The notes beneath the pieces are model-generated. The model worked only from the letters and a program-made list of their open reading frames with translations. It was not told the DNA's origin and searched no databases. The position numbers and the translations under genes are program-made. Positions 1 through 33,591 of a stretch of DNA of 64,000 nucleotides are shown here, piece by piece (the stretch's first letter is position 1; each line of letters opens with the position of its first letter). This DNA comes from a virus. Location of the stretch: positions 96,001 through 160,000 of the IMG/VR virus record IMGVR_UViG_3300045988_154761; one strand, written 5' to 3'.

Positions 1-252
1 GAAAAGCGTTTACAGGAAGCAACTAAGTATTTTAATCAGCAGATGGAAGCTCTTGGTATCACTCTTGATGCAGATGAAGTTCGTAAGGCTATTGAAGCCG
101 CTGTTTATGAGGTAAATCGTGAACTTCATGATGAAAAGTTGAAGGAGAGCCAGCTTCAGAATACCAATCCTGTTCCTTCGAATGACAAGATTGATAACAC
201 TGGTAATGTTATCCCTGATGAAGATACTGTAACTGAAGAAGCAGTAGGCTAA
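1..252 (+). CDS. hypothetical protein, 3' end of a gene starting upstream of the window
   Basis: frame 1 is open from nt 1 to TAA at 250-252. Confidence 0.55.
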   Translation, partial: EKRLQEATKYFNQQMEALGITLDADEVRKAIEAAVYEVNRELHDEKLKESQLQNTNPVPSNDKIDNTGNVIPDEDTVTEEAVG

Positions 253-287
253 GATAATTTTCCTTTCTTATCTTAATAAAGGTGTTG

Positions 288-316
288 TTGAGACGTAATT
301 ACTCAGCGTCTATAAA
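288..316 (+). promoter_or_regulatory. weak sigma70-like promoter candidate upstream of the tRNA island
   Basis: TTGAGA (288-293), 17 nt spacer, TATAAA (311-316); spacer flanked by inverted repeat GAGACG/CGTCT. Confidence 0.35.
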
Positions 317-387
317 TAAGTTAAGTAACGTGAGGTTTGTTGGTAAAATACGAAAGTCCTTTCGGGAATGGAAAACCAATATTATAT

Positions 388-465
388 GGGAGTATAGTTC
401 AACTGGTTAGAATGCTGCTTTTACACGGCGGAGGCTTACAGGTTCGAGTCCTGTTATTCCCACCA
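388..465 (+). tRNA. tRNA-Val(TAC)
   Basis: hand fold: acceptor GGGAGTA/TATTCCC, anticodon loop TTTACAC, T arm ACAGG-TTCGAGT-CCTGT, encoded CCA. Confidence 0.85.
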
Positions 466-488
466 TCAGACTTAAATTTAAACAAAAG

Positions 489-610
489 TTGACACTCACA
501 GCAAATTTATTTTATGTTTTTGGAATAACGTCGTGTAAGGTTCGACTCCTTATTAACAAATCCCTTGAGCAAGGAATAGTTAACCGTGGATGGCTAGAAA
601 AAAGTGTCAA
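489..610 (+). ncRNA. ACAGCAA closing-helix RNA element, copy E1 (tRNA-mimic core)
   Basis: TTGACAC (489-495) pairs with GTGTCAA (604-610); ACAGCAA at 498-504; core has T-arm-like TAAGG-TTCGACT-CCTTA plus hairpins. Confidence 0.6.
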
Positions 611-623
611 GATTGCTCATTAT

Positions 624-714
624 GGAGTAGTAAGCCTAATTGGTAAGGCACCAGTTTGCTAAATTGGTAGTAGCTTGAAAGAGCGTACTGGTTCGAGTCC
701 AGTCTACTTCGCCA
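624..714 (+). tRNA. tRNA-Ser(GCT)
   Basis: acceptor GGAGTAG/CTACTTC, loop TTGCTAA, long variable arm, T arm ACTGG-TTCGAGT-CCAGT, G73, CCA. Confidence 0.85.
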
Positions 715-1540
715 CTAAATCCTTGAAAGAAAAAGTATAACAAGGACTTTCTTTTAAAAACACAGCAATGACCCGCCACCTTGTTTGTATAAGGGGAAAC
801 CTGTGAGTTATAGTTAAAAGGTCTATAACATTTATATCCCCATTAGTGTAATGGAGCATTCTCGTTAACTGATGTTGAGTAAACACTAAGGTAGCTCTTT
901 AGCGATAACAGCCACATTGGGAGAGGAAGTTGGTTCGAATCCAATTATAGGGTCCAGTAACTACGATACCGTCTTATAAAGATGGAAGTTCGCCTAACAG
1001 ATGGAGTATCGCTTAATGTTAGGATGTGTATATGGCGCAACTAAGTTCAGACCGTCCAGAACCTACAACCATATTAGCGGTGACAGCTTGGAGAGACAGC
1101 AAATATGCGGCAACTGGTGTAATAATAAAAGTAGCCATGGACAATATTTTTATTATGTTTGGAGTTCGATTCTTCTCTGCCGCTCCAAAAGACAGAATGG
1201 TTAGATATTTCTTGATGTCTTTTCAAAAAACAAGAAATCCGTAAGATATAGTACGAAACTTATCTTGGAATACAGTTTAGCTGGTTACAATGTATTCGAC
1301 ACTAAACCGCCCTCCAAGTCTGATGGACTGGTAACAATAGAAAGACCGCTGTTTACTCAATCGGGTGCGTTAAGCCCTTATACAATAAACAAGACTGATG
1401 ATGAAAATGACCAAGATAATTGGGTGCAAGTTTGCTGAAATATTTCTGTAGACCTCTCCCTAATCGAACCGAGGGCAGATAAGTGGAAAGCTGGTCTGTC
1501 AGTAATCATTAGTTCTTGTTTTATGTACCTTTAATAAGAA
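715..1540 (+). other. ORF-free, GC-elevated, hairpin-rich block (unclassified structured RNA candidates)
   Basis: only short spurious ORFs; many 6-7 bp hairpins (CCGTCTT/AAGATGG, CCTAACA/TGTTAGG, GAATACA/TGTATTC); an orphan tRNA-like D arm (~845) and T arm plus CCA (921-957) that I could not join into a tRNA. Confidence 0.3.
1088..1188 (+). ncRNA. ACAGCAA closing-helix element, divergent copy E12
   Basis: TTGGA (1088-1092) pairs with TCCAA (1184-1188); ACAGCAA at 1096-1102; second helix GCGGC (1107-1111)/GCCGC (1179-1183). Confidence 0.4.
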
Positions 1541-1561
1541 TAAAAATAAAAAGGTGTTTTT

Positions 1562-1882
1562 ATGGATTACATTGATAAGCAGTTTGCTAAACGTGGGTAT
1601 AAATTAGTACGTCAAAATGAATATGGCGCTTATTATGAAAGAAAAGATAATAAGTTTAATTATACAAGTGAACTTTGTATTATAGCTAAAGCAAATGGTA
1701 AACATCTTATTCAGTGTTATGATGCCCAAGTAGTTTATGGTCATCCTGAAAAGGATTCTAATAACTATCGTGTTATGAATCAAGTTGATGGAATTGATGC
1801 TTCTCTTTCTTTTTGGATTTGGTTAAAGTTTCATCAGCTTAAACACAAATATAAGTGGGATAAGGTGAAGAAACATGATTAA
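1562..1882 (+). CDS. hypothetical protein (106 aa)
   Basis: ATG preceded by AAAGGTG; overlaps the next gene by 8 nt. Confidence 0.7.
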   Translation: MDYIDKQFAKRGYKLVRQNEYGAYYERKDNKFNYTSELCIIAKANGKHLIQCYDAQVVYGHPEKDSNNYRVMNQVDGIDASLSFWIWLKFHQLKHKYKWDKVKKHD

Positions 1883-2147
1883 GAAATATATTAAGAAGCC
1901 AGTTACCATTGAAGCTATTATTTGGGATGGTGCTAATGAAACTGAAATTATGGAGTTCGTTGGTGCTCATTGCTGTGTTACTACTCAGCATACTATTAAT
2001 GGTACTGTAACTAATCTTATCATTAATACTCTTGAGGGAGACTATTATGCGTCTGTTGGCGATTATATCGTTAAGGGAATTAAAGGTGAGTTCTATCCTG
2101 TTAAACCTGATATCATGAAATTGACTTATGATGAGGTTATGGAGTAA
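1875..2147 (+). CDS. hypothetical protein (90 aa)
   Basis: ATG preceded by AAGGTGA; TAATG junction with the next gene. Confidence 0.7.
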   Translation: MIKKYIKKPVTIEAIIWDGANETEIMEFVGAHCCVTTQHTINGTVTNLIINTLEGDYYASVGDYIVKGIKGEFYPVKPDIMKLTYDEVME

Positions 2148-2563
2148 TGGATACTTCTTCATTTAAAATTATTGGTCATTATTCTATTTGTACTGGTGAA
2201 GTAGGCGAGTTTGAAACCAATGATATTTTAAAAGATAAAGAATTTAATTATTGGTATAAGAAAGATTCTGAAACTATTAAATATCCTTGGGAGTCTCGTA
2301 TCTTAGATGCTACTCAAGTTTGGACTAATGCTGATTGTTATCAAGATAGTACATCAGGTAAATGGATTTATAGATGTATTCCTTATGATGGTTTAATTTT
2401 TACTCTAGAAGCTAATTCTATGACAGAATTAGTAGAACTTATTAGAGATTTTGTTGAGCCTCCTGTAGAGGTTTTTGAAGAGCTTATTAAAAGTCAAAAT
2501 TATACAATTTTTGCTAATCATTTCAAAGAAGAAATTTCTAATAAAGACTTGACAAAGATTTAA
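2147..2563 (+). CDS. hypothetical protein (138 aa)
   Basis: translationally coupled start (TAATG); TAA stop. Confidence 0.7.
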   Translation: MDTSSFKIIGHYSICTGEVGEFETNDILKDKEFNYWYKKDSETIKYPWESRILDATQVWTNADCYQDSTSGKWIYRCIPYDGLIFTLEANSMTELVELIRDFVEPPVEVFEELIKSQNYTIFANHFKEEISNKDLTKI

Positions 2564-2577
2564 AAATATGGTAAGAT
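2549..2577 (+). promoter_or_regulatory. sigma70/sigmaA-like promoter
   Basis: TTGACA 2549-2554, 17 nt spacer, TGG-TAAGAT 2569-2577. Confidence 0.5.
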
Positions 2578-2661
2578 AAATACATCTTAAGAGAAGAGAA
2601 AAATAAAAATTTCTTAAAAATATAACAAGCAAAAAAGCAAAAAGAAAATTTTAATAAATGG

Positions 2662-2690
2662 TTGACATCTTAAAGATGATATGCTATAAT
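2662..2690 (+). promoter_or_regulatory. sigma70/sigmaA-like promoter driving E2 and tRNA-Glu
   Basis: TTGACA 2662-2667, 17 nt, TGC-TATAAT (2685-2690). Confidence 0.7.
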
Positions 2691-2722
2691 AAGTGCATAA
2701 ATAAAACCTCCTGAATAATAAA

Positions 2723-2840
2723 GTAGACTCTTACAGCAAATTCTTAAAAAGGTTAACACAATTGTCTTGAAAACAATCATTAGCGAGTTCGATTCTCGTC
2801 AGAGGGCGCTCTGTGGTGAATAATACGCAAAAGAGTCTAG
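2723..2840 (+). ncRNA. ACAGCAA closing-helix element, copy E2 (tRNA-mimic core)
   Basis: TAGACTCTT (2724-2732) pairs with AAGAGTCTA (2831-2839); ACAGCAA 2733-2739; core has anticodon-arm-like ATTGT-CTTGAAA-ACAAT, T arm GCGAG-TTCGATT-CTCGT and capped hairpin CAGAG-GGCG-CTCTG. Confidence 0.65.
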
Positions 2841-2852
2841 GCTAATTAATTT

Positions 2853-2928
2853 GGTCGGTTAGTCAAGTGGGCTAAGACACTGGCCTTTCACGTCAGTAGC
2901 ACGGGTTCGAACCCCGTACCGACTACCA
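2853..2928 (+). tRNA. tRNA-Glu(TTC)
   Basis: acceptor GGTCGGT/ACCGACT, loop CTTTCAC, T arm ACGGG-TTCGAAC-CCCGT, CCA. Confidence 0.85.
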
Positions 2929-3102
2929 TTATTCAAATCAGAAATCCATTCTTATGATAGTGAGAGTAAGTTTTATCGGATTTAAATGAGGGGAACTTAA
3001 ATCTATCGAAGGGTTAAGAAATAATTGTTTGACGAAAAGTTGTTTCTCCTTTCTCTCTATCTGAGATGAATAATTTCCTTTCTGTAAGATGATATTTATA
3101 AA

Positions 3103-3236
3103 GTAGAGACTAACAGCAATTTTGAAAATATGTTAAAAAGCCAAACTCCCATTCTTCGGTTCGAATCCGAACGTCTTCAGTTGAAGTATGTAGCCAAGTG
3201 GTTTAAGGCAGGAGTCCATAACAACAATGTCTCTAG
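3103..3236 (+). ncRNA. ACAGCAA closing-helix element, copy E3 (tRNA-mimic core)
   Basis: TAGAGAC (3104-3110) pairs with GTCTCTA (3229-3235); ACAGCAA 3113-3119; core T arm TTCGG-TTCGAAT-CCGAA and D-arm-like GCC-AAGTGGTTTAA-GGC. Confidence 0.6.
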
Positions 3237-3243
3237 TATTTAT

Positions 3244-3386
3244 GCTCGTGTAACTCAGTTGGCAGAGTAGCGGCCTTGATGGAGTAGTATAAGAAATATG
3301 TCCTGTAAAGGAAGATGTGAGTTCAAATCTCATTTTCATCACAATTAAGCCGTTTGTCGAGAGTTCGAATCTCTCCACGGGCACCA
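3244..3386 (+). tRNA. tRNA gene with a 67 nt insertion in the anticodon loop (identity unresolved; Lys, Thr or other)
   Basis: acceptor GCTCGTG/CACGGGC, D arm ACTC-AGTTGGCA-GAGT, anticodon stem GCGGC (3270-3274)/GCCGT (3349-3353) separated by 74 nt, T arm GAGAG-TTCGAAT-CTCTC, CCA. Confidence 0.6.
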
Positions 3387-3421
3387 ATAGCAGAAATGCT
3401 TATTTTGTAATGACTTCAATA

Positions 3422-3486
3422 GTAGATGCTTACAGCAATTTTAATTGTACTTATCTGTTAAATAAGAATACACAAAAAGCGTCTAT
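3422..3486 (+). ncRNA. ACAGCAA closing-helix element, copy E4 (short form)
   Basis: TAGATGCTT (3423-3431) pairs with AAGCGTCTA (3477-3485, one G:U); ACAGCAA 3432-3438; lies in the leader of the endonuclease gene. Confidence 0.6.
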
Positions 3487-3508
3487 CCCCTTTCTAAATG
3501 GAGGAATT

Positions 3509-3916
3509 ATGTAGATAGAAAATAATCGAGATAGAGGTAGAGCAGGATTAAGTTTAGCTATTGCTTATTTTGGTAGCAATGGTTATACTGTTAATCTTCC
3601 TATTAATGATACTCAATGGTATGATTTAGTAATTGAAAAAGATGGTAAATTTGAAACTGTTTAGTGTAAATTCACGGGAAGTAAAGAGAATGAAGTTAAC
3701 TTGACTTCTTGTGGTGGCACAAATGGTTCAAGATATGATTCAGTTTTAAATCATCCTTTAGATTGGTTATTTTGTGCGGATAAAGATAAAAATCTTTATC
3801 TGATTCCGATGGAAGATTTAAGAAAAGCTGGAAATACAAAAGCTATTTCTTTAAGAAAAGCTCCCAATTCTAATAAGCAAGGTTTTAATACTTATACTTA
3901 TTTGGTAGAAATTTAA
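3509..3916 (+). CDS. PD-(D/E)XK endonuclease of the group I intron-associated / homing type; 2 in-frame TAG
   Basis: ATG after GGAGGAA; TAG at codon 2 and at 3662-3664; motifs YDLVIEKDG and V-TAG-CK match the D...(E/Q)xK core. Confidence 0.7.
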
Positions 3917-3918
3917 AT

Positions 3919-4003
3919 GGGTGAGTAGTGAATCGGCAAACACGACAGACTGTAAATTTGTTTCCTAACGGAGTAGAAGGGTCGGCACCTTCCTCACCCA
4001 CCA
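3919..4003 (+). tRNA. tRNA-Tyr(GTA)
   Basis: acceptor GGGTGAG/CTCACCC, loop CTGTAAA, long variable arm, CCA; atypical T loop GTCGGCA. Confidence 0.75.
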
Positions 4004-4026
4004 ATAAAATTTTTGTTTTAAAACTC

Positions 4027-4055
4027 TTGACAAAATGAAAATCTTATGCTATAGT
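4027..4055 (+). promoter_or_regulatory. sigma70/sigmaA-like promoter driving E5, E6 and tRNA-Leu
   Basis: TTGACA 4027-4032, 17 nt, TGC-TATAGT (4050-4055). Confidence 0.7.
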
Positions 4056-4132
4056 AAAAATATGATAAAGATACAAATTTATTTGTAAGCTAATTGTTCA
4101 TTTTTTATTGTTCATAAAAGCATTCCTTTCAG

Positions 4133-4263
4133 GTAGACTCTAACAGCAACTTTACAATCACAAATGCTATGGGTCTGTTTGTTGGAGGTTCGAATCCTTC
4201 ACTCCCGACCATCGGGAGTTAGCTCAACGGATAGAGCAATAGATTTTGTAAAAATGAGTCTAG
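4133..4263 (+). ncRNA. ACAGCAA closing-helix element, copy E5, enclosing a circularly permuted tRNA-like body
   Basis: TAGACTC (4134-4140) pairs with GAGTCTA (4256-4262); ACAGCAA 4143-4149; order is TCTGT, variable region, T arm GGAGG-TTCGAAT-CCTTC, ACTCCCG-A-CCA-T-CGGGAGT, D arm GCTC-AACGGATA-GAGC, ATAGA. Confidence 0.65.
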
Positions 4264-4324
4264 TCAATAAATTAATAAATTGACGCTCCTATTTTTCTAA
4301 TAGGCAAATATAAATTCCTTTCAA

Positions 4325-4442
4325 GTAGACACGTACAGCAAAATTACTTGATGCTTTAATATGGAAAATTAACGATAAGGTTCGACTCCTTAATCTTCTT
4401 TGGAAGATGCGTGGTTGCTGGAAATCAAAAAACGTGTCTAGG
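4325..4442 (+). ncRNA. ACAGCAA closing-helix element, copy E6 (tRNA-mimic core, related to E1)
   Basis: TAGACACGT (4326-4334) pairs with ACGTGTCTA (4432-4440); ACAGCAA 4335-4341; T arm TAAGG-TTCGACT-CCTTA and capped hairpin ATCTTC-TTTG-GAAGAT. Confidence 0.65.
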
Positions 4443-4457
4443 TTAAGTATTAATTAT

Positions 4458-4542
4458 GCAGGATTGGCGGAATTGGCAGACGCGACGGATTCAAGTCCCG
4501 TTTCCTAATGGAGTAAGAGTTCAAGTCTCTTATCCTGCACCA
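4458..4542 (+). tRNA. tRNA-Leu(CAA)
   Basis: acceptor GCAGGAT/ATCCTGC, loop TTCAAGT, long variable arm, T arm AGAG-TTCAAGT-CTCT, CCA; A31:C39 mismatch. Confidence 0.8.
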
Positions 4543-4991
4543 TAGTCTTGATGATAGACTAACAAAACATCATCCCCCAACGCCCGTCCGAAGTCTTGGA
4601 GTAGAGAACAAGTGAATGGTTCTCGAACGCAAAGTAAGCTGTCATAAGCTGAAAAAGGCTATAAGCCGCACATGGGTAGAACACAGATATATGGTGAGAG
4701 ATGTTAGGGTGCGAATGTAACATCAAAAGCCTACAGCGAAAAGCTATACGGAGAAGTCTGTGCCGTGTTTACGGGAATAGGTGGTTGCGTACCTATTCAA
4801 ACAAAAACTCTGATTACTGCAACTAAATCGGGGTAGGTATTGAGGTTATGGGTCATATAACCTTAAAACACAATAAGCCGAGCATACTGCTTATTGCTCC
4901 TAACGGGTGGTGCTGAGGATGAACAACAAAAGCCAAGTTATAGAGTTCTTGTAAAAAACTCTGTTGCTATTTGAAAGAATAGCTCAATTAT
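4543..4991 (+). ncRNA. unclassified ~450 nt GC-rich structured spacer (U1) between complete tRNAs
   Basis: no ORF; many hairpins (ATGTTA/TAACAT, ATAGGT/ACCTAT, GGTTAT/ATAACC, ATAAGC/GCTTAT, AGAGTT/AACTCT, GCTATT/AATAGC). Confidence 0.35.
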
Positions 4992-5067
4992 GGGCCTGTA
5001 ACTCAGTTGGGAGAGTGTCTGCTTTGCACGCAGGAAGTCGCAAGTTCAAGTCTTGTCAGGTCCACCA
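4992..5067 (+). tRNA. tRNA-Ala(TGC)
   Basis: acceptor GGGCCTG/CAGGTCC with G3:U70, loop TTTGCAC, T arm TTCAAGT, CCA. Confidence 0.85.
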
Positions 5068-5521
5068 TAAGAGTTAGTTGCTCTCTTAGAATAAAAAGCA
5101 CCGTATTAACACAAGTTTACGATAATTAACTGGCCCTCGTCTGCGGGTAAACAGCAGTTTTAGGCTACTATAAGCCGAAGTTTTAAGGGCAGTTTCTTTA
5201 AAAAACATGCATATGGTTTTTCTTGTTATCTCTTTTTTATCCTAAAAATAAGACGTAGCAGCATGACTTGAGGCTATACATCAAGCTCCTGAGACCGAAG
5301 AAAAAAAGCTTCCTGTATGTCAATGGGAAAATAATCTATCTGTTTCTTAATAACAGGTGGGAGGGAGTATTTTAGGTCGGCAAGACCATGAGAGGATAGC
5401 GCTGTTCTCTCAACCCTTTGCAAAGGTTGCTGATGGGTTTTCCAAACGGATGTGGAAATTAAATGAATGGAAGGGTATAATTCAGCCCAAAATCAGCTCT
5501 AAAATTCAAGAAAATATATTT
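5068..5521 (+). ncRNA. unclassified ~450 nt structured spacer (U2)
   Basis: only a spurious 65-aa ORF; three-way junction GCCCT/AGGGC enclosing CTGC-GGGTAAACA-GCAG and GGCT-ACTATA-AGCC near 5140-5205. Confidence 0.3.
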
Positions 5522-5599
5522 GGGTGTGTAGTTCAGTCTGGTCAGAACACTTGACTGTTAATCAAGGAGTCGAAGGTTCAAATCCTTCCATACCCGCCA
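5522..5599 (+). tRNA. tRNA-Asn(GTT)
   Basis: acceptor GGGTGTG/CATACCC, loop CTGTTAA, T arm GAAGG-TTCAAAT-CCTTC, G73, CCA. Confidence 0.85.
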
Positions 5600-5952
5600 A
5601 AAGTGGAGAGTGTAGGTTCGAGTCCTGCCCCGCTCGTGGGAAACCCTTGCAGGAAGCTGTTAGGTACAGCGCCACTTAGAATTTCTTTCACCTTATTACG
5701 CGAAATATGGGATTGAGATGTTGCTTTAGTCGGGTTCTTTTACAGCAGAAAATAAGAACGCACCTGTTTAATTGGGTTTTTCAGTTCAGTAAAAACAAGA
5801 AAAACCTCGGTTGTTTAGAAATTTTCTTCTGATATTGAATGAAAACAAATAGAGAATTCTCTCATTGCAATGCCGAAAGGTAGTAAGTTACGAATTTACC
5901 CATGATAAATTACGAACTTGCTACCGAGTAGGGATAAGAGAGAATTAAACAT
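5600..5952 (+). ncRNA. unclassified ~350 nt structured spacer (U3)
   Basis: ORF-free; AAGTGG (5601-5606)/CCACTT (5672-5677) closes a 77 nt module; 10 bp stem GTAGTAAGTT/AACTTGCTAC; CC-GAAA-GG tetraloop hairpin. Confidence 0.3.
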
Positions 5953-6028
5953 GCTTTGGTAGCTCAATTGGTAGAGCAGTGGACTGAAAATCCACGTGTA
6001 GCCAGTTCAATTCTGGCCTAAAGCACCA
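5953..6028 (+). tRNA. tRNA-Phe(GAA)
   Basis: acceptor GCTTTGG/CTAAAGC, D arm GCTC-AATTGGTA-GAGC, loop CTGAAAA, T arm GCCAG-TTCAATT-CTGGC, CCA. Confidence 0.9.
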
Positions 6029-6029
6029 T

Positions 6030-6113
6030 TGCTGGCGAGTGAAACGGATATATAAATCACGCTTGGCTCATACCCAAGTAATAGTGGGTTCGACTCCCAT
6101 GCTTCAGCAACCA
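6030..6113 (+). tRNA. tRNA with CAT anticodon (Met or Ile2 type), irregular acceptor and oversized D loop
   Basis: anticodon arm CTTGG-CTCATAC-CCAAG, D stem GTGA/TCAC with 14 nt loop, T arm GTGGG-TTCGACT-CCCAT, CCA; acceptor needs a bulge or a mismatch. Confidence 0.55.
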
Positions 6114-6137
6114 AAAAACAAAAGGAAGTAAATTCTA

Positions 6138-6443
6138 ATGACTGATTTTAAGACTTACATTTATTAGACAGCAAGTAATAAAAAGTTTGTTTATAGATGT
6201 CCTCATTGTAATAAAGGGATAATGCAAGTAGCAGAAATTAAAACTGTTAAAGATGAAACTAATATTTTATCTTGGAATTATACTTGTCCAGTTTGTAAGA
6301 AACAAATGGTTTCTATTGAAAAAGATGGTTGTTCTTCTTTTAAAAGTGTGTTCCCTCCAATGACTCAAATTAGTGATAAAGAATTTACTGATATTAAAAA
6401 GGATGTAGGAGAAAAAGGTATCTATCTGTTCTCTGAAATATAA
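6138..6443 (+). CDS. small zinc-ribbon protein (101 aa), 1 in-frame TAG
   Basis: ATG 6138 after AAAGGAAG; TAG at codon 10; CPHC...CPVC; the track ORF 6222-6443 is its 3' part. Confidence 0.6.
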
Positions 6444-6450
6444 AATAAAT

Positions 6451-6545
6451 GCTAGCGTACAGAAGTGGTCATAACTGCCATCACTTGAAATGATGTGTGA
6501 CGGCTTGTATCCGTCTCGTGAGTTCGAATCTTACCGCTAGTGCCA
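6451..6545 (+). tRNA. tRNA-Ser(TGA)
   Basis: acceptor GCTAGCG/CGCTAGT, anticodon arm CATCA-CTTGAAA-TGATG, long variable arm, T arm GTGAG-TTCGAAT-CTTAC, G73, CCA. Confidence 0.85.
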
Positions 6546-6565
6546 TTAAAAACGGAGTCTTTAAT

Positions 6566-6769
6566 ATGAAAATCTGGAATGGAAATGATTTTGAATATCT
6601 TGGTTATTTTGTAAAAAACAACAAGAAAGCTAAATATTTTGAGGTTTTTGACAAGAATGGCAATCTTCTTTTTAGACAAACTAATTGGGGTCATGCTTGT
6701 GTGACTTCAGTTAAACATAAGATTGAAGACTTTCATAAAAAATATAGACAGGAGATAAAAAATGAGTAA
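6566..6769 (+). CDS. hypothetical protein (67 aa)
   Basis: first ATG downstream of tRNA-Ser; the longer track ORF (6497) would overlap the tRNA. Confidence 0.6.
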   Translation: MKIWNGNDFEYLGYFVKNNKKAKYFEVFDKNGNLLFRQTNWGHACVTSVKHKIEDFHKKYRQEIKNE

Positions 6770-7277
6770 TAATAATTCAATCGAAATCGAACGTAAGTTT
6801 TTAATTTCTGGTTTTCCTAAAGTTGATTTTGACGAAGTTGGAATTGTTAAAACTATTTATATTAATATCAAATATAATTCTGATGGAAAAATTTTACAGG
6901 AAATTCGTATAAGACGTTGGTTTGAAAGTGGCAAAGGTTATCGTCCAGATACTCTTACTTTCAAATCTGGTGGTACTTTAACTCGCACTGAAATTGAAAC
7001 AAATCTTACAGATAATTCTTTGTTTGACTGTTTTAATGAACTTGGTTATAATCCTATTGTAAAAGATTATAGAGGTCTTTACAATAATGGTTATTTAATT
7101 GAATTCAATCTTGTAGATGGTGGAAGTGAGACTGCTTTCTATTATGCCGAAGTTGAATTCAATTCTGAGGAAGAAGCCAATAGTTTTGTTTGGCCTTTTC
7201 CTGAAGTATTTATTGAGGAAGTTACTAATAAGCCTGAATACAAAATGGCGAATTATTGGAAACGTACTCGTGGATAA
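6762..7277 (+). CDS. CYTH-domain (triphosphate tunnel metalloenzyme) protein
   Basis: N-terminal IEIERKFLI (ExExK signature) and YYAEVEF near the C-terminus. Confidence 0.75.
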   Translation: MSNNNSIEIERKFLISGFPKVDFDEVGIVKTIYINIKYNSDGKILQEIRIRRWFESGKGYRPDTLTFKSGGTLTRTEIETNLTDNSLFDCFNELGYNPIVKDYRGLYNNGYLIEFNLVDGGSETAFYYAEVEFNSEEEANSFVWPFPEVFIEEVTNKPEYKMANYWKRTRG

Positions 7278-7301
7278 GGACTATTATTTAGTCCTTTATT
7301 T
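7277..7301 (+). terminator. intrinsic terminator-like hairpin
   Basis: AGGACT/AGTCCT stem followed by TTTATTT. Confidence 0.5.
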
Positions 7302-7377
7302 GCTGGATTAGTTCAGTTGATAGAACGTATGATTTGTAATCATAATGTCAGGGGTTTGAGTCCCTTATCCAGCTCCA
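7302..7377 (+). tRNA. tRNA-Thr(TGT)
   Basis: acceptor GCTGGAT/ATCCAGC, anticodon arm TATGA-TTTGTAA-TCATA, T arm AGGGG-TTTGAGT-CCCTT, CCA. Confidence 0.85.
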
Positions 7378-7414
7378 TGAACTTTTTTATAAAATAAAAA
7401 AGAGGATTTTTATT

Positions 7415-7606
7415 ATGGACGAATTTTTAATCTCCGAAATCTTTGAGCTGATTAAAACTTTAAAGAAAGACAAGTATACCAAGTATACCATGAAAGATGT
7501 TAATACCATTTGCGATTTGCTTGGTATTGAATTATTTTGGTATCAAAAGTTTGTTCTTCTTCGTCAGCTTAATGATAAAAATTATATGAGGTATATATGC
7601 CGATAA
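7415..7606 (+). CDS. hypothetical protein (63 aa)
   Basis: ATG after AAAGAGGA; overlaps the next gene by 10 nt. Confidence 0.6.
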   Translation: MDEFLISEIFELIKTLKKDKYTKYTMKDVNTICDLLGIELFWYQKFVLLRQLNDKNYMRYICR

Positions 7607-7866
7607 GAAACGGAAACAATGATATTTATAGTGACATTTTCTTCCAATATTTGAATGAGAATGAAGAGAAGATGATTAATGAAACCGCTTCTAAGATGGA
7701 AGAACGAAATCCGATTCTTTATCCTAAAGATGTTTCAGTAGCAATTTTGAAATCCATCTATAGTGATTATAAGAAATATCTTTATGAGCACGGATATACT
7801 TTTAAGAAAGAATACTTAGAAGAATACTTTAAAAATTTATCAGAAGAAATTTTAAAAAGTACTTGA
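7597..7866 (+). CDS. hypothetical protein (89 aa)
   Basis: track ORF; its TGA stop lies inside the next promoter -35. Confidence 0.65.
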   Translation: MPIRNGNNDIYSDIFFQYLNENEEKMINETASKMEERNPILYPKDVSVAILKSIYSDYKKYLYEHGYTFKKEYLEEYFKNLSEEILKST

Positions 7867-7891
7867 CAAGATGATGAGTATGTGGTATACT
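7863..7891 (+). promoter_or_regulatory. sigma70/sigmaA-like promoter ahead of tRNA-Arg and tRNA-Gln
   Basis: TTGACA 7863-7868, 17 nt, TGG-TATACT (7886-7891). Confidence 0.7.
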
Positions 7892-7932
7892 TAAGATGTA
7901 GTTGAGATAAGAAATAAGTAAATCTTTGATAT

Positions 7933-8007
7933 GTGGACGTAGTTTAATGGCTAAAACGGTGGCCTCCGGTTCCGCAGATAGGGTTTCGATTACCCCCGTC
8001 CACTCCA
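7933..8007 (+). tRNA. tRNA-Arg(CCG)
   Basis: acceptor GTGGACG/CGTCCAC, loop CTCCGGT, T loop TTCGATT, CCA; one mismatch each in the anticodon and T stems. Confidence 0.7.
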
Positions 8008-8058
8008 GAAAAACAAATGTCTCTCTCTTGTAGACAGACAAGATTTCCTTTTTTGTGT

Positions 8059-8165
8059 ACTTCGTGGTGGTAACAGTACGATAAATAAAATAAGCCATGT
8101 CCTGTCGGACTCAGAAATGAGATGGATGTCCTCTGTGGAGAATCGGGATTCAGGGGCGAAGTACA
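8059..8165 (+). ncRNA. unclassified ~107 nt structured element between tRNA-Arg and tRNA-Gln
   Basis: 8 bp closing helix GTACTTCG (8059-8066)/CGAAGTAC (8158-8165); internal hairpins GTCC-TGTC-GGAC and CCAT...ATGG. Confidence 0.35.
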
Positions 8166-8172
8166 AAAATAT

Positions 8173-8246
8173 TGAGCATTAGAATAATGGTAGTTCATTA
8201 GGCTTTGACCCTAATGGTGGGGGTTCGAATCCCTCATGCTCAGCCA
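8173..8246 (+). tRNA. tRNA-Gln(TTG)
   Basis: acceptor TGAGCAT/ATGCTCA (U1:A72), anticodon arm TTAGG-CTTTGAC-CCTAA, G73, CCA. Confidence 0.85.
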
Positions 8247-8260
8247 ATTAAAGGAGATAT

Positions 8261-9232
8261 ATGGATATTTTAATTGATTAGTACACAAAAGAAGAGTTAT
8301 AGCAAATTTTAAATAATAGTTCTTCTTATTCTGACGCTTTAAGAAAATTAGGATATAATTCTACATCAAACGCTAATCGTCGGCATTTAAAGAGAATTAT
8401 AAAAGAAAAAAACTTAGAAGTTAATTTTCTTCCAAAGACATACATAAAGAAATTATCTGATGAAGAAATTTTCAAAGAAGATTCTCATGTTAGTTAGAGT
8501 TGTGTGCGAGAACATTTTTTAGCTTTAAATATAGTTGAGTATAAATGTTCTATATGTGGATAGGAACCGTTTTGGAATGGAAAACCTTTAACTTTAACAT
8601 TAGACCACATTAATGGTAAAAACCGAGATAACAGACTTGATAATTTAAGGTGGGTTTGTCCTAATTGCGATAGATAGCTTCCTATTTTTGGGCGGAAAAA
8701 TAAAACAGAGTTAAAAAAGAAGAAGTTAAAAAAATTTGATTTGGTAAAAAACAACAAACCAAAATCTTACAAAAAATATTTTAAAATTTACAAAGATAAC
8801 AAAAGATTTTGTTTGGGTTGTGGAAAAGAAATTACCAATAATTCTCTATATTGTTTTGATTGTGCTAATAAGCATAGAAGAAAACAAAAAGATAGACCAA
8901 CCAAAGAAGAGTTAGAAAAAATGTTAAAAGAAGAAAAGGGTAATTTTTCAAAAATAGCTAACCAATTTGGTATTTCTGATAATGCAGTTAGAAAATGGTG
9001 TAATAATTATGGTTTATCCTGTAAATCATCTGCTTATAAAGCACCAAAAAAAGAAAAACAACAACGAATTGAGAAACCTGTAAAGCAATTAGATTTAAAT
9101 GGTAATTTAATTAAAAGCTATTCTTCTATTAATCAAGCTTATGTTGAAACTAAAATAGAGCATATTTCTCAATGTGCGAACGGGTTAAGGAAAACAGCTC
9201 GGGGTTATAATTGGGAATTTGAAAAAGATTAA
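8261..9232 (+). CDS. HNH homing endonuclease with C-terminal HTH/NUMOD-like modules; 5 in-frame TAG
   Basis: ATG after AAGGAGA; frame checked end to end (TAG only); LDHINGKNRDNRLDNLRWVCPNCDR-TAG-LP; the track ORF 8741-9232 is its 3' part. Confidence 0.8.
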
Positions 9233-9251
9233 AAATTTTTTAACAATTAAC

Positions 9252-9373
9252 GTAGACGCTTACAGCAAACAATAATAAAATCAAATTCTATTAAAAAAGA
9301 TTTAGGGTATTGTTCCTTGCTAATTAGTTTATGATGCTTTCATGATTCTCCTTTGTTAGTATTATGCGTCTAG
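9252..9373 (+). ncRNA. ACAGCAA closing-helix element, copy E7
   Basis: TAGACGC (9253-9259) pairs with GCGTCTA (9366-9372); ACAGCAA 9262-9268; no T arm in the core. Confidence 0.55.
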
Positions 9374-9380
9374 TTTATAA

Positions 9381-9447
9381 GTGCCGTACCAAGGTTGGAG
9401 TCACTCGACGGAGGGCTTAAGAAGGGGTTCGAATCCCCCACGGTGCA
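9381..9447 (+). ncRNA. tRNA-like fragment (acceptor-like stem plus T arm, no foldable D or anticodon arms, no CCA)
   Basis: GTGCCGT/ACGGTGC stem and GGGG-TTCGAAT-CCCC; the middle 36 nt do not fold as a cloverleaf. Confidence 0.3.
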
Positions 9448-9503
9448 AGATTGAATTGTTTGGAGTACTACAAACAAGATGGTAAGTTATTGATGATTTA
9501 AAA

Positions 9504-9568
9504 GTAAACCCTTACAGCAATTTAACTATTTAATTTTTGCTTGAAAAAAGATTAAGGATAGGGTTTAG
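9504..9568 (+). ncRNA. ACAGCAA closing-helix element, copy E8 (short form)
   Basis: TAAACCCT (9505-9512) pairs with AGGGTTTA (9560-9567); ACAGCAA 9514-9520. Confidence 0.55.
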
Positions 9569-9584
9569 TCCTGTAATGTTGAAA

Positions 9585-9671
9585 GTAGACACTAACAGCA
9601 ATTAAAATAAAAATACTGGGAAATATATTTAATTGGAATAAATACTTTTTTAGATTTTTAAAGTGTCTAGG
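9585..9671 (+). ncRNA. ACAGCAA closing-helix element, copy E9 (short form)
   Basis: TAGACAC (9586-9592) pairs with GTGTCTA (9663-9669); ACAGCAA 9595-9601. Confidence 0.6.
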
Positions 9672-9680
9672 ATTTTATAT

Positions 9681-9816
9681 GGGGATGTATCTCAATTGGT
9701 CAGAGGGCCCGACTTATGTTTTAGTAGTTTAAAAGTAAAACTTTTAATGCAAGTGCAAGACTTGTCTAAAACACCAAATCGGGAAGTTGAGTGTTCGAGC
9801 CACTCCATTCCCACCA
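9681..9816 (+). tRNA. tRNA gene with a 59 nt insertion in the anticodon loop (Ile-UAU if excised at 37/38)
   Basis: acceptor GGGGATG/CATTCCC, D arm TCTC-AATTGGTCA-GAGG, anticodon stem CCCGA (9708-9712)/TCGGG (9779-9783) separated by 66 nt starting CTTATG, T arm GAGTG-TTCGAGC-CACTC, CCA. Confidence 0.65.
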
Positions 9817-9837
9817 ACGGTAGCAAATTCAAATAAA

Positions 9838-9907
9838 GTAGACTCTTACAGCAATTACTTAGAGACTTGTGATTTGGGATTACATATGTTTTGAAAAATG
9901 AGTCTAG
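9838..9907 (+). ncRNA. ACAGCAA closing-helix element, copy E10 (short form)
   Basis: TAGACTC (9839-9845) pairs with GAGTCTA (9900-9906); ACAGCAA 9848-9854. Confidence 0.6.
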
Positions 9908-9915
9908 CTTTATTA

Positions 9916-9992
9916 GCGCCTGTAGTCTAATTGGATAAAACCGCACTCTTCTAAAGTGTATCTTATGAGTTCGAATCTCGTCAGGCGTGCCA
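9916..9992 (+). tRNA. tRNA-Arg(TCT)
   Basis: acceptor GCGCCTG/CAGGCGT, anticodon arm GCACT-CTTCTAA-AGTGT, T arm ATGAG-TTCGAAT-CTCGT, CCA. Confidence 0.8.
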
Positions 9993-10018
9993 ATGAAGTT
10001 TCAAACTTCATTTAATTT
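9993..10018 (+). terminator. intrinsic terminator-like hairpin
   Basis: ATGAAGTT-TCA-AACTTCAT followed by a T-rich tract. Confidence 0.55.
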
Positions 10019-10022
10019 ATTA

Positions 10023-10333
10023 TTGCGGAGTAGTGTAACGGTTAGCACAGCGGTCTTGAATTAGGGACTCCTATTTGGAAACGAATAGGTAATAAAGAGG
10101 GCTAAAACGGTTGACATCTTATTATTAAGTTAGTAAGACTATCCCGTGCTAAATCAGTTCAAAAAACTGTAAATGTGTAGAGAGCATAGACTCTCCACCT
10201 AAACCGAAAGGCAAGGTGATAATGTGCTCCAGACTACAACGATTTTTATCGGCTATGGTGACATAGAGTAGCAAGCTAAAACCGTACCATTCTGAGTGGG
10301 TTAGATTGAGTTCGAATCTCAACTCCGCTGCCA
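10023..10333 (+). tRNA. split tRNA gene interrupted by a 220 nt group I-like intron; predicted spliced anticodon CTA (amber suppressor), alternative TGA
   Basis: 5' part TGCGGAG-TA-GTGT-AACGGTTA-GCAC-A-GCGGT-CT (10023-10055); 3' part CTAAA-ACCGT, 20 nt variable region, TTGAG-TTCGAAT-CTCAA-CTCCGCT-G-CCA (10276-10333). Confidence 0.55.
10056..10275 (+). ncRNA. group I-like intron candidate inside the split tRNA
   Basis: 5' exon ends in U, intron ends in G; P1 GGTCT (10051-10055) with GGACT (10064-10068) including the U:G pair; P10 TTAG (10060-10063) with CTAA (10276-10279); P2 CCTATT/AATAGG; R-like TCCAGACTACAA (10228-10239); GAAA-capped hairpin; the P3/P7 core was not resolved. Confidence 0.45.
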
Positions 10334-10438
10334 ATTTAAAAGTAAAGGGAACATTGGAGTAATTAACCAATGAGATAATGATACCTTCGCTGTCAAGCTT
10401 TACTTTTTTTAAATAAATCTGTGAAGGAGATTTTGTTT

Positions 10439-11410
10439 ATGCAAGGAAGTATTTATATTATTCATAATTCAATAAACGATAAAAAGTATATTGGATAGAC
10501 TTCAAGAACAGTTGAAATTCGTTGGAAAGAGCATTTACAAGAAGCTCAAAATTTAGATTGCCATTATGCAATTTATAATGCTATAAGAAAATATGGGGTT
10601 GAAAATTTTTGGGTAGAAGAAATAGAAAAATGTGAAACGAAAGATTTAGATGAAAGAGAAAAATATTGGATAAAATATTATAATTCTTTTAAAAAAGGTT
10701 ATAATTCAACTCTTCGGGGAACCACAAATTTCAATTGTTTTTATAATAAATTAACTTTTGAAAATTCAAACTGTGTTTTTGATTCAATAGAGAATTTTTC
10801 AAGAATATATAGTTAGTATCATAATATATCATTGAGTCAAGTAAAAGACAAAATATTAAGAGCAATAAATAATGATAAAACTTTTTATGGTAAAAAGCCT
10901 GTAATTTTAAATTGGGATGTAGATGTATCTTCAGATAAAGACAAAGAAAAATTTGTTAAATAGTTTGAAGATATATATTAGAATAAAAGTGTAAGATGTA
11001 TTGAACTTAAAAAAAATTTTAATACTGTTGGGCAAGCGGCAAAGTATTTTGTTGAAAAAGAAATATATACTGGAAAATCTAGTAATCCTCTTCAAGCTGT
11101 TACAGTTTTAATTACTAAATCAATAAAAGACAATAAAGCTTGTAAATCTTTGAATAATTATCACTTTAAATATACATAGAAAAATAAAAAGATATTAAAC
11201 AAATCCTCTTTAAATCCTTATCAAAAAGTTCCAGTAAAATGTAATGAATTGAATTTAGTTTTTAATTCATAGGTTGAAGCTGCTTAGTATATGATAGATA
11301 ACAAATTGTGGGATGTTAGTTTAAAAACTGCACGATTAAGAATAACTGACTTAGTAAATAATAAGATAGAAAAATATAAAGGTTATTCTTTTTGTAAAAT
11401 ACAAACTTAA
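10439..11410 (+). CDS. GIY-YIG homing endonuclease with repeated NUMOD/IENR-like DNA-binding modules; 7 in-frame TAG
   Basis: ATG after GAAGGAGA; all 323 codons checked, TAG is the only interruption; GSIYIIHNSINDKKYIG-TAG-TSRTVEIRWKEH, KYWIKYYNS. Confidence 0.85.
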
Positions 11411-33096: not shown

Positions 33097-33591
33097 ATGA
33101 TTAGTCCGACATATGGACGAGTAAATATGAAACAAATAGCCAAAATTATTTTTGACTATATTAGAGAACGTACAGATGTAGCAGAACATAATCATATTGT
33201 CATTGGTACTGATAGTCAAAATCACAAAGATGAAACAAAAGCCGTCATTGTCATTGCTGTCTATACCGATGGCAAAGGTGGTAAGTTCTTCTATGAGATT
33301 CAAAAACTACCCATTATTTTAAATTTAAAGGTTAAAATTCACAAAGAAACTGAATTAAGCATTGCTTATGCTGACCAGTTAATTGATGAATTAACAACTT
33401 TGTCTATTCAAGAGAATTTTAACTATGAAAAGTATACTAGCATTGGGATTCATGTAGATGCTGGATATGCTGGACCAAGTGGTCAAGTAATTCCAGAAAT
33501 TGTTGGATGGTTGAAAGGTGCTGGTTACGAACCAACTGTTAAACCAGATAGTTTTGTAGCAAGTACGATTGCAGACAGGATTAGTAAATGA
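33097..33591 (+). CDS. YkuK/DUF458-family RNase H-like protein
   Basis: IVIGTDSQ, HVDAGYAGPSG and GYEPTVKPDSFVAS...ADR match B. subtilis YkuK as I recall it. Confidence 0.8.
   Translation: MISPTYGRVNMKQIAKIIFDYIRERTDVAEHNHIVIGTDSQNHKDETKAVIVIAVYTDGKGGKFFYEIQKLPIILNLKVKIHKETELSIAYADQLIDELTTLSIQENFNYEKYTSIGIHVDAGYAGPSGQVIPEIVGWLKGAGYEPTVKPDSFVASTIADRISK

Follow-up and report, generated by a model that had tools for sequence, protein, structure and literature searches.

The DNA considered here, called the window, is a stretch of 64,000 nucleotides (nt) from a virus genome (IMG/VR record IMGVR_UViG_3300045988_154761, positions 96,001 to 160,000), and the phage belongs to a TAG-recoded, human-gut lineage with genomes of about 200–220 kb. 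On the plus strand of the window, positions 3244–3386 hold a tRNA-Lys(UUU) gene whose anticodon loop, CUU/UUAA, is interrupted between tRNA positions 34 and 35 by a 67-nt insert that itself resembles a tRNA. Here we describe this nested gene, its counterparts in related phages, and a possible route by which the insert may leave the RNA and spread.

Anatomy of the nested tRNA-Lys gene

An initial annotation, made from the letters alone, had recorded a complete outer tRNA with acceptor, D and T arms and CCA, and anticodon stem strands lying 74 nt apart. Each of these elements is found in its place, and the 74 nt are made up of 7 loop nt and the 67-nt insert. The parts of the outer gene, all read from the sequence, and a repeat preceding it are as follows.

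3244–3250 and 3376–3382, plus strand: outer acceptor stem, GCTCGTG/CACGGGC, with a U3·G70 pair
3383–3386, plus strand: outer A73 and encoded CCA (CCA at 3384–3386)
Within 3244–3386, plus strand: outer D arm, ACTC/GAGT, and outer T arm, GAGAG-TTCGAAT-CTCTC
3270–3274 and 3349–3353, plus strand: outer anticodon stem, GCGGC/GCCGT
3244–3277, plus strand: 5′ exon, with the acceptor 5′ strand, D arm, anticodon stem 5′ strand and C32 U33 U34 (3275–3277)
3345–3386, plus strand: 3′ exon, with U35 U36 A37 A38 (3345–3348), stem 3′ strand, variable loop, T arm, acceptor 3′ strand, A73 and CCA
3100–3135, plus strand: promoter-like repeat AAAGTAGAnnCTnACAGCAAnTT, a copy of a 23-nt motif, with a downstream −10-like TATGTT

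The repeat at 3100–3135 is probably the start of the transcription unit that includes the nested gene, to judge from the other copies of the motif. When 3278–3344 is removed in silico, what is left is a canonical cloverleaf with a 7-nt loop and U33, which ARAGORN calls tRNA-Lys(ttt); the predicted ligated exon junction reads ...GCGGCCUUUUAAGCCGU... Under default settings, ARAGORN makes no call for the 3244–3386 gene, and with introns allowed it recovers the outer tRNA and labels it Thr(tgt). This Thr-UGU register was rejected because the intron-less alleles described below and the identity of the slot give Lys. The gene was also rejected as the missing TAG suppressor, since no CUA anticodon can be obtained from it.

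The insert is composed of the following parts.

3278–3344, plus strand: tRNA-like intron of 67 nt, ends fixed by intron-less alleles (Rfam RF00005)
3278–3284 and 3334–3340, plus strand: inner acceptor, GAUGGAG/UUUCAUC, 7 bp (Rfam alignment), part of an 8-bp helix
3285–3286, plus strand: inner U8 and A9 (Rfam alignment)
3287–3299, plus strand: inner D-like stem-loop with a 4-bp D stem (Rfam alignment)
3301–3312, plus strand: short inner hairpin, UCCU-GUAA-AGGA, replacing the anticodon arm (Rfam alignment and minimum free energy (MFE) fold)
3317–3333, plus strand: inner T arm, GUGAG-UUCAAAU-CUCAU (Rfam alignment and MFE fold)
3341 and 3342–3344, plus strand: inner N73, which is A, and the tail CAA (sequence)

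That a second tRNA-shaped fold lies inside the first is borne out by Rfam, as the inner element alone (3278–3341) scores 39.9 bits against a gathering score of 29 for tRNA, with an E-value of 6e-05 in the 64-kb window and 2e-07 in a local scan; its orthologues score 41–41.5 bits. The MFE fold of the isolated insert yields the acceptor, the hairpin and the T arm, and the last of these was correctly given as T-arm-like from the start. The 7-bp helix first proposed, TGATGGA/TTCATCA, does exist, but it lies within the 8-bp helix, in which the tRNA register is GATGGAG/TTTCATC. Similarly, the hairpin described as GNRA-capped is present, but its GNRA loop is not conserved, relatives having AUAA. With a 4-bp stem and a 4-nt loop, and with deletions there in the Rfam alignment, the inner arm differs from that of a decoding tRNA, which has a 5-bp stem and a 7-nt loop with an anticodon; the inner element is a tRNA mimic, not a decoder. 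The fold energy is not significant for AT-rich RNA, either for the whole gene (z = −1.7) or for the insert (z = −1.0), and therefore the case for the nested gene rests on sequence comparison. An assembly artefact was rejected, as the nested gene, with compensatory changes, is found repeatedly in independent Logan, ENA, IMG/VR and JGI assemblies.

The lysine slot in relatives and the family of nested inserts

Related arrays were retrieved through a neighboring open reading frame (ORF) of 171 amino acids, and the order of their tRNA genes was tabulated. In the arrays of this clade the lysine slot lies between Glu-TTC and Tyr-GTA, and it is filled in three ways (retrieved loci are denoted by L numbers).

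L085, L087, L089, L090, L092 and L093: intact tRNA-Lys-TTT
The window, L094 (= L031) and L088 (= L073): 67-nt insert
L086, L095, L096, L097 and L099: a different insert, of 50 nt

Relatives with an intact tRNA-Lys are close ones, their neighboring protein being 95–97% identical. Three of the intron-less alleles (L090, L092 and L093) have the stem of the window, GCGGC/GCCGT, and the loop CTTTTAA, which is regenerated by a sole cut, CTT / G3278...A3344 / TTAA; because these alleles permit one register, the insert is exactly 3278–3344. The same nested Lys gene is also present on four more contigs from human-gut metagenomes, one of which is L233. The tail of the Lys intron is ACAA in the window, ACCA in L233 and ACCG in L094/L088. 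The same Lys intron occurs in two exon backgrounds (stems GCGGC/GCCGU and CUUGC/GCAAG), each of which has an intron-less counterpart, and between the two backgrounds the intron diverges by about 9% and the exons by about 22%, as counted manually on aligned sequences. From the alignments, this pattern is that of a homing-type element rather than of vertical descent. The nested module of the initial annotation is thus real as a fold and not built into the gene, as close relatives hold an intact tRNA-Lys in the same slot. A mobile insertion, with relatives having an intact tRNA, had been named as the observation that would count against such a module; it is what we observe, and on this comparison the insert is instead an optional, mobile, intron-like element. 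Collaborative homing is not supported as the means of mobility: the PD-(D/E)XK gene at 3410–3916 adjoins the gene of the window and is absent beside the same intron in L094 and L088, and no consistent link was found in the clade arrays between introns and the spacing to neighboring homing-endonuclease genes.

ARAGORN in intron mode and a rule-based scan together found at least 10 nested inserts in six isoacceptors (Lys, Ile, Gly, Glu, Gln and Thr), at sites from 32/33 to 36/37. The scan required an outer T arm and acceptor and an inner 7-bp helix with an adjoining T arm, the lengths of the flanks being left free; run without T-loop motifs, it is too permissive in AT-rich DNA (uniform background), and it becomes informative once those motifs are required. 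The insertion sites, and the sister gene in the window, are as follows.

Lys-UUU inserts: sites 34/35 and 35/36
Ile-UAU inserts: sites 36/37 and 32/33
Gly-UCC insert: site 36/37
Glu-UUC insert: site 36/37
Gln-UUG insert: site 35/36
Thr-UGU insert: site 34/35
9681–9816, plus strand: sister gene, tRNA-Ile(UAU), from the rule-based scan, with a whole-gene Rfam tRNA match of 49.5 bits
9681–9717 and 9777–9816, plus strand: its 5′ exon (loop CUUAU) and 3′ exon (loop AA), which in-silico splicing turns into tRNA-Ile(tat)
9718–9776, plus strand: its 59-nt intron, GUUUUAG...CUAAAAC followed by A and CCA (MFE z = −2.5)

The initial annotation had also seen a design shared by the 3244 and 9681 genes, and this likeness proves to be closer than described: both inserts run from tRNA position +1 to N73 plus three nt, and the flanking loop nt sum to 7. 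Across the family, the 5′ and 3′ flanks add up to 11 in 26 of 35 combinations of sequence and register, 11 being 7 loop nt plus N73 plus three, and the other 9 combinations are five of those same genes with the register of the inner helix slid by 1–2 bp. The inserts of the family extend from +1 of a 7-bp acceptor helix to N73 and three more nt, and their removal restores a 7-nt loop. CCA makes up these final three nt in 22 of 26 distinct inserts, the others differing from it by one base, so that the tail is always 4 nt long while its sequence drifts (ACCA, ACCG, ACAA, UUCA). The Gly and Gln exons match intron-less sister alleles base for base, and the Glu exons nearly so, and only the register +1...N73CCA works; the Thr exons, too, are identical to intron-less alleles, with two registers possible. 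When spliced in silico, 25 of 25 genes give canonical ARAGORN tRNAs with the anticodon expected for the slot. Several automatic calls were rejected on the same grounds: the Trp-CCA that ARAGORN assigns to the Gly gene, because only one register matches the intron-less alleles and the slot holds Gly, and the SeC-UCA that it assigns to the 9681 gene, whose slot holds Ile. The 9681 gene was also rejected as a TAG suppressor, since it yields no CUA anticodon.

The flanks bear on whether the insert might be a bulge-helix-bulge (BHB) intron of the kind cut by EndA/TSEN, which would likewise be short and lie in the anticodon loop. They measure 3 + 8 nt here and, across the family, 1–5 nt on the 5′ side and 6–10 nt on the 3′ side, and the arrangement of a 3-nt bulge, a 4-bp helix and a 3-nt bulge is missing. 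In addition, no EndA family protein is found among the scanned proteins, and both the tRNAs and the gene content are bacterial-phage-like, so that a BHB intron is hardly credible.

The 26 distinct inserts have a common plan. A 7-nt acceptor strand is followed by U8 R9 (AG instead in the second Lys type, Lys-B) and then by a variable core of 13–59 nt, in which a D-like arm is usual and an anticodon-like hairpin is optional, being missing in several. In all 26, a T arm of 5 + 7 + 5 nt is contiguous with the 7-nt acceptor 3′ strand, after which come N73 and three nt, so that every insert has a 12-bp acceptor/T-stem stack, a 7-nt T loop and a single-stranded N73(CCA) tail. Of the 12 acceptor and T-stem pairs, 10 change on both sides in a trimmed alignment of 20 distinct sequences. 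In the clade loci (L085 onward) and the window, scanned on both strands, 18 of 18 distinct elements of up to 71 nt that have this plan sit inside anticodon loops, and no free-standing copies were found. The tRNA introns known from bacteria and phages belong to group I and interrupt the anticodon loop, so an RNA that splices or cleaves itself, be it a mini group I intron or two small ribozymes, has to be considered, and the 219-nt insert of a candidate suppressor tRNA in the same window (see below) has a 5′ exon ending in U and G as its own last base. However, the family inserts, at 50–88 nt, are far below group I size, and they retain no catalytic core: only tRNA-like positions are conserved, and the helices covary freely. 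An Rfam scan of 3200–3420 (E ≤ 10) returned tRNA at 39.9 bits and, below threshold, some weak matches, none of them to a ribozyme or intron family, and the splice sites occur at differing loop positions with differing flanking bases. A ribozyme is thus very improbable.

Whether the inserts leave the RNA at all is a further question. The tRNA genes might have been killed by a selfish insertion, or the product might be a chimeric RNA or a released mini-tRNA serving as a defence decoy or as a partner of a Ro60-like protein. Some close relatives do without the insert, AAA codons could be served by the tRNA-Lys of the host, the phage carries further tRNA mimics that do not decode (YrlA-like RNAs, together with a Ro60-like ORF), and excision is deduced from sequence. 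Against this, the flanking loop nt always sum to 7, with U33 and the anticodon of the slot kept, and the outer stems covary in intron-bearing alleles (GCGGC/GCCGU versus CUUGC/GCAAG). Furthermore, tRNA-Ile(UAU) is interrupted in 16 of 16 clade arrays extending as far as its slot, with four or more exon backgrounds represented, and is intact only in a distant clade (L103–L107), which is hard to square with dead genes. Intact and covarying exon helices, an Ile gene that is always interrupted and the sum-to-7 rule together argue that the inserts leave the RNA, and we regard the absence of splicing as quite unlikely; a decoy role of the released intron is compatible with splicing.

Similar genes, of the same simple design, were also seen in two other lineages. 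At L255:8049 (plus strand), a tRNA-Lys(UUU) intron ends at N73 without CCA, and the tRNA genes of this phage are CCA-less. At L257:1937 (minus strand) and L289:3765 (plus strand), tRNA-Asp(GUC) has an intron of the NCCA type and an unusual spliced loop, CUGUCUA (U37); L289 lies on a contig of 180 kb that was assigned to a Eubacterium sp. bin, which may hint at the host. The idea that the intron tail follows the 3′-end style of the phage's own tRNAs fits the clade (CCA/CCA) and L255, fails for L257/L289, and is not claimed.

Proposed excision, ligation and spread

The interpretation that we favor, to which we give about even chances, is that 3244–3386 is a tRNA-Lys(UUU) gene interrupted by a mobile tRNA-mimic intron, which would be cut out by nucleases that process tRNA ends, sealed by an Rnl1-type ligase and spread in a homing-like manner. 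Its parts are not equally firm: the anatomy and the intron status are highly probable from the comparison of alleles, and the pathway of an RNase P cut, a post-CCA cut and Rnl1 is put forward tentatively, at somewhat below even chances.

An outline of the proposed process is as follows: the intron resembles a tRNA such that its 5′ end would be the 5′ splice site and its position-76 end the 3′ splice site, and the host's tRNA end-processing nucleases would act as the splicing endonucleases. RNase P would cut 5′ of intron +1 (3277/3278), and a ruler activity of the RNase Z/BN type would cut four nt beyond the acceptor helix (3344/3345), leaving a 3′-OH on the 5′ exon and a 5′-phosphate on the 3′ exon. 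The tRNA halves would be kept together by the outer stems while a ligase of the phage T4 Rnl1 family closes the nick in the anticodon loop. The element could then spread between co-infecting phages like a homing intron. Enzymes of tRNA ends are proposed as the cutters because both junctions are natural tRNA termini, and a ruler-type 3′ cut is indicated by a tail that is fixed in length and drifting in sequence. An acceptor/T-arm minihelix with RCCA is all that RNase P needs, and the parts that the inserts conserve, namely the acceptor/T-stem stack, the T loop and the N73-CCA tail, make up the minimum required by RNase P and RNase Z; both Thermotoga RNase Z and E. coli RNase BN are able to cleave directly after an encoded CCA. 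In tRNA-Lys, nicks of the anticodon loop are sealed by T4 Rnl1, whose textbook substrate is a nick with 3′-OH and 5′-phosphate.

A ligase of this family is present in the clade. In relatives, some 27 kb upstream of the tRNA array, a PF09511 (RNA_lig_T4_1, T4-Rnl1-family) protein, with 48.9 bits against a cutoff of 28.3, adjoins an AAA_33 kinase/HD protein (L152:7570–9927, by Pfam; the ligase itself at L152:8569–9927), and was found by walking from a contig with the same Lys intron. Both proteins are 94–100% conserved in 15 of 15 clade contigs, including those with the Lys intron.

Several points weigh against this proposal. No endonuclease with a cut exactly after A76 is known to be of general occurrence, and CCA blocks RNase Z in Bacillus-type systems. 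The pair of Rnl1 and a kinase/HD protein is the classic answer to anticodon nucleases and need not splice. No RNA ligase was found among about 75 ORFs scanned in the window's own 64 kb. The L257/L289 lineage has an NCCA-tailed intron, and its own tRNA genes are without CCA. All of the 240 pair cells in the alignment are standard, compared with 36–53% in slid controls, a figure that is inflated because perfect acceptor pairing was one of the search criteria for most members. The splicing and the cleavage sites are themselves inferred from sequence. Finally, the tRNA introns of Lak megaphages (Devoto et al., 2019) have a 5′ hairpin and a linker in front of the tRNA-like part, and hence RNase P cannot set the Lak 5′ splice site, so that a mechanism shared with them would differ from this one.

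The last point is among those that would favor the main rival, in which a dedicated phage or host endonuclease reads the tRNA-like fold and cuts both junctions, leaving a 2′,3′-cyclic phosphate and a 5′-OH that are healed by the kinase/HD protein and sealed by Rnl1, or else sealed directly by host RtcB. Such an enzyme would also suit the Lak introns, whose 5′ boundary is not tRNA +1. The ligase gene adjoins an AAA_33 kinase/HD phosphoesterase gene, a healing pair like that of T4 Pnkp; genes that may modify ends lie upstream of the array (Thg1-like, DSP phosphatase, metallophosphoesterase, Polbeta-type and PARP/Macro/NADAR), and the window encodes a PF04308 RNase H-like protein. On the other hand, no candidate endonuclease family, EndA/tRNA_int_endo or other, was matched in the approximately 95 kb scanned, and the junctions are tRNA termini in more than 10 independent intron types, which is explained more simply by the enzymes that make those termini. 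We therefore consider the dedicated nuclease unlikely.

If tRNA end-processing nucleases and Rnl1 are indeed the agents, the inserts might represent a third route of tRNA splicing (RNase P, an RNase Z-type enzyme and Rnl1) that spreads by its own reverse reaction into loops nicked by anticodon nucleases, an extension that we hold to be speculative and rather doubtful. In it, the ligase would put the free intron RNA, with a 5′-phosphate and a CCA-3′-OH end, into a loop that an anticodon nuclease of the host has nicked, and copying of the joined RNA back to DNA would let the element occupy new loop positions and new tRNAs. Reverse insertion would explain the tRNA-exact ends (mature or RNase Z-processed), the location in anticodon loops only and the sites from 32/33 to 36/37.

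Phage context and comparison with known systems

The window has a GC content of 32% and an array of 13 conventional tRNA genes on the plus strand, each after a promoter-like motif. An identical 34-kb Logan contig exists, and proteins of the window also occur on 200–225-kb ENA, Logan and IMG/VR contigs from human-gut samples; DNA and protein searches found no relatives among GenBank phages. Host hints (Pfam families and one label of a metagenome-assembled genome) point to Firmicutes. Three homing-endonuclease-like ORFs, PD-(D/E)XK (3410–3916), HNH/NUMOD (8261–9232) and GIY-YIG (10439–11410), contain 2–7 in-frame TAG codons and no other in-frame stop, which indicates TAG recoding, at least in those genes; in the GIY-YIG motif, "YIG*T", the TAG codon would suit Gln or Ser. 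The 23-nt repeat, AAAGT(A/T)GACnCTnACAGCAAnTT, occurs in ten copies within positions 1–11000 of the window, before tRNA and small-RNA genes, the copy at 3419–3441 lying just past the nested Lys gene, and probably serves as an early promoter peculiar to this phage, its spacer being conserved.

485–507, 2720–2742, 3100–3122, 3419–3441 and 4130–4152: 23-nt repeat
4322–4344, 9249–9271, 9501–9523, 9582–9604 and 9835–9857: further copies

Upstream of the array, the related loci (L129, L116, L108–L110) encode PARP+WGR, a Thg1-like 3′–5′ polymerase, DSP phosphatase, Macro, a metallophosphoesterase, a P-loop kinase-like protein, an IscS-like desulfurase, an RNase T-type exonuclease, a Polbeta nucleotidyltransferase, LigA and NADAR, a dense cluster of RNA-end and NAD-related functions. 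In the window, the ORF at 33097–33591 has a strong match to PF04308 (RNase H-like, YkuK/DUF458; E = 2e-37) and is a conceivable candidate for an RNA nuclease.

Other unusual RNAs are seen in the window. A candidate TAG-suppressor tRNA at 10025–10333, with the anticodon CUA, has a U1·U72 mismatch, G73, an encoded CCA and a variable arm of about 20 nt (Ser-like). An insert of 219 nt separates its U33 from its C34 and is group-I-like in having U at the 5′ exon end and G as its last base; this insert has no Rfam match. Default tRNA finders miss the candidate, and most relatives have a different, intact class-I tRNA-CUA after Arg-TCT. At 4160–4262 and 3141–3232, there are two YrlA-like mimics of tRNA in circularly permuted order (T arm, closed acceptor, D arm), entered via an anticodon-like stem, the first of which (...ACUCCCGA-CCA-UCGGGAGU...) has z = −4.3 and an Rfam YrlA score of 40.6 bits, below the gathering score of 69. 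The ORF at 23463–25181 encodes a DUF2828/DUF7788/VWA protein taken as Ro60/TROVE-like, and its presence together with the mimics suggests, at the level of sequence, a Ro-Y RNA system of the phage. The tRNA-like gene at 838–956 has a good T arm, an acceptor and CCA, and a 46-nt insert, a CTAAGG-TAGC-TCTTTAG hairpin with no likeness to a tRNA; its "anticodon" region varies in relatives, where ARAGORN reads Val-cac, Ile-aat or Val-aac. Right after tRNA-Phe, 6031–6115 is tRNA-like, with CAU in its anticodon loop (GGCTCATACCCAAG) and a D region that is too large; it is missed by ARAGORN and has a partial, slightly sub-threshold Rfam match of 27.6 bits. At 5521–5637, tRNA-Asn is followed by an additional T-arm and acceptor-like fragment (GAGTGTAGGTTCGAGTCCTGCCCCGCTCGT), which may be a remnant of a tRNA 3′ half or another mimic.

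To our knowledge, tRNA introns of the bacterial type are regarded as group I ribozymes, and protein-dependent splicing of tRNA is regarded as archaeal or eukaryal. Short, non-catalytic, tRNA-shaped phage introns that end at tRNA termini challenge this group-I-only picture, and the mechanism, if true, links phage RNA-repair ligases with routine tRNA maturation. Standard finders miss such genes or mis-call them (ARAGORN gives Lys as Thr, Ile as SeC and Gly as Trp), and consequently inventories of tRNAs and suppressors in recoded gut phages are incomplete; the boundary rule (+1...N73CCA, flanks summing to 7) can be used to find such genes and splice them correctly.

Phage tRNA introns of an unexplained kind were already known from Lak megaphages (540 kb, 26% GC), in which "enigmatic" introns, including those of Thr-TGT and Gly-TCC, were described with no mechanism or boundary rule proposed; the Thr-TGT intron, which is absent from some genomes, "itself may encode a tRNA" (Devoto et al., 2019, Nat Microbiol; PMC6784885). 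No other precedent was found in the searchable full-text (open-access) literature, and within it neither the boundary rule nor the association with an Rnl1-type ligase has been described before; they offer a testable answer to the puzzle of 2019. Both systems belong to TAG-recoded gut phages with tRNA arrays and have short anticodon-loop inserts that vary in presence among genomes, and in both the tRNA-like part ends the intron, with the 3′ junction at the natural tRNA 3′ end (Table S6 of that paper, four sequences compared by eye). However, the Lak introns are 79–114 nt long, and in them the tRNA-like part is preceded by a 5′ hairpin and an A-rich linker and stops at N73, lacking CCA (after the one-base offset noted by the authors, in our own reading of the four sequences), whereas here the intron is the mini-tRNA alone, from +1 to N73 plus CCA, at sites from 32/33 to 36/37, in a lineage of about 200–220 kb and 32% GC.

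Among better-known introns, those of group I in tRNA genes (e.g., cyanobacterial tRNA-Leu(UAA)) are likewise optional, mobile and located in the anticodon loop, and need removal at the RNA level, but they have at least about 200 nt and a self-splicing, conserved catalytic core (P3–P8), in contrast to a 67-nt, coreless insert with no Rfam intron match. The archaeal and eukaryal BHB introns (EndA/TSEN with RtcB/Trl1) share short length, splicing by proteins (as proposed here) and sometimes non-canonical positions; here, by contrast, there is a tRNA-shaped intron in a bacterial phage, with no BHB motif.

Stand-alone RNAs show similar modules. YrlA Y RNAs and SpF41-like small RNAs contain tRNA-like modules with a reduced anticodon arm, and the inner element shares with SpF41-like RNAs the motif GAGUAGUAUA, the short hairpin and the T arm, its match to Rfam SpF41 being weak (23.7 bits against a gathering score of 52). 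Unlike the elements described here, which were found only in anticodon loops, these RNAs come from separate genes, each having a promoter and a terminator, and the acceptor end of YrlA is closed. Stand-alone SpF41-like RNA genes with their own −10 box and terminator and the motif GAGUAGUAUA were seen in L004, L010, L011 and about 40 other loci; the contigs with them, which hold the matches to the 50-nt pattern, are taken as streptococcal phages from the match to the SpF41 consensus, and these RNAs may be a class of mini-tRNA related to the inner element.

The working analogy for the cuts is provided by MALAT1 mascRNA and the stable RNAs of the T4 tRNA cluster, in which a tRNA mimic with a reduced anticodon arm sets the RNase P and RNase Z cuts; these systems release an end product without re-ligation and do not lie inside another tRNA. 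For the sealing step, the nearest likeness is the PrrC/Pnkp/Rnl1 repair of T4, which also concerns a break in the anticodon loop of tRNA-Lys(UUU), resealed by an Rnl1-family ligase; the clade encodes such a ligase beside a kinase/HD protein. The break in T4 is damage by host defence at 33/34, whereas the programmed removal of 67 nt is proposed here.

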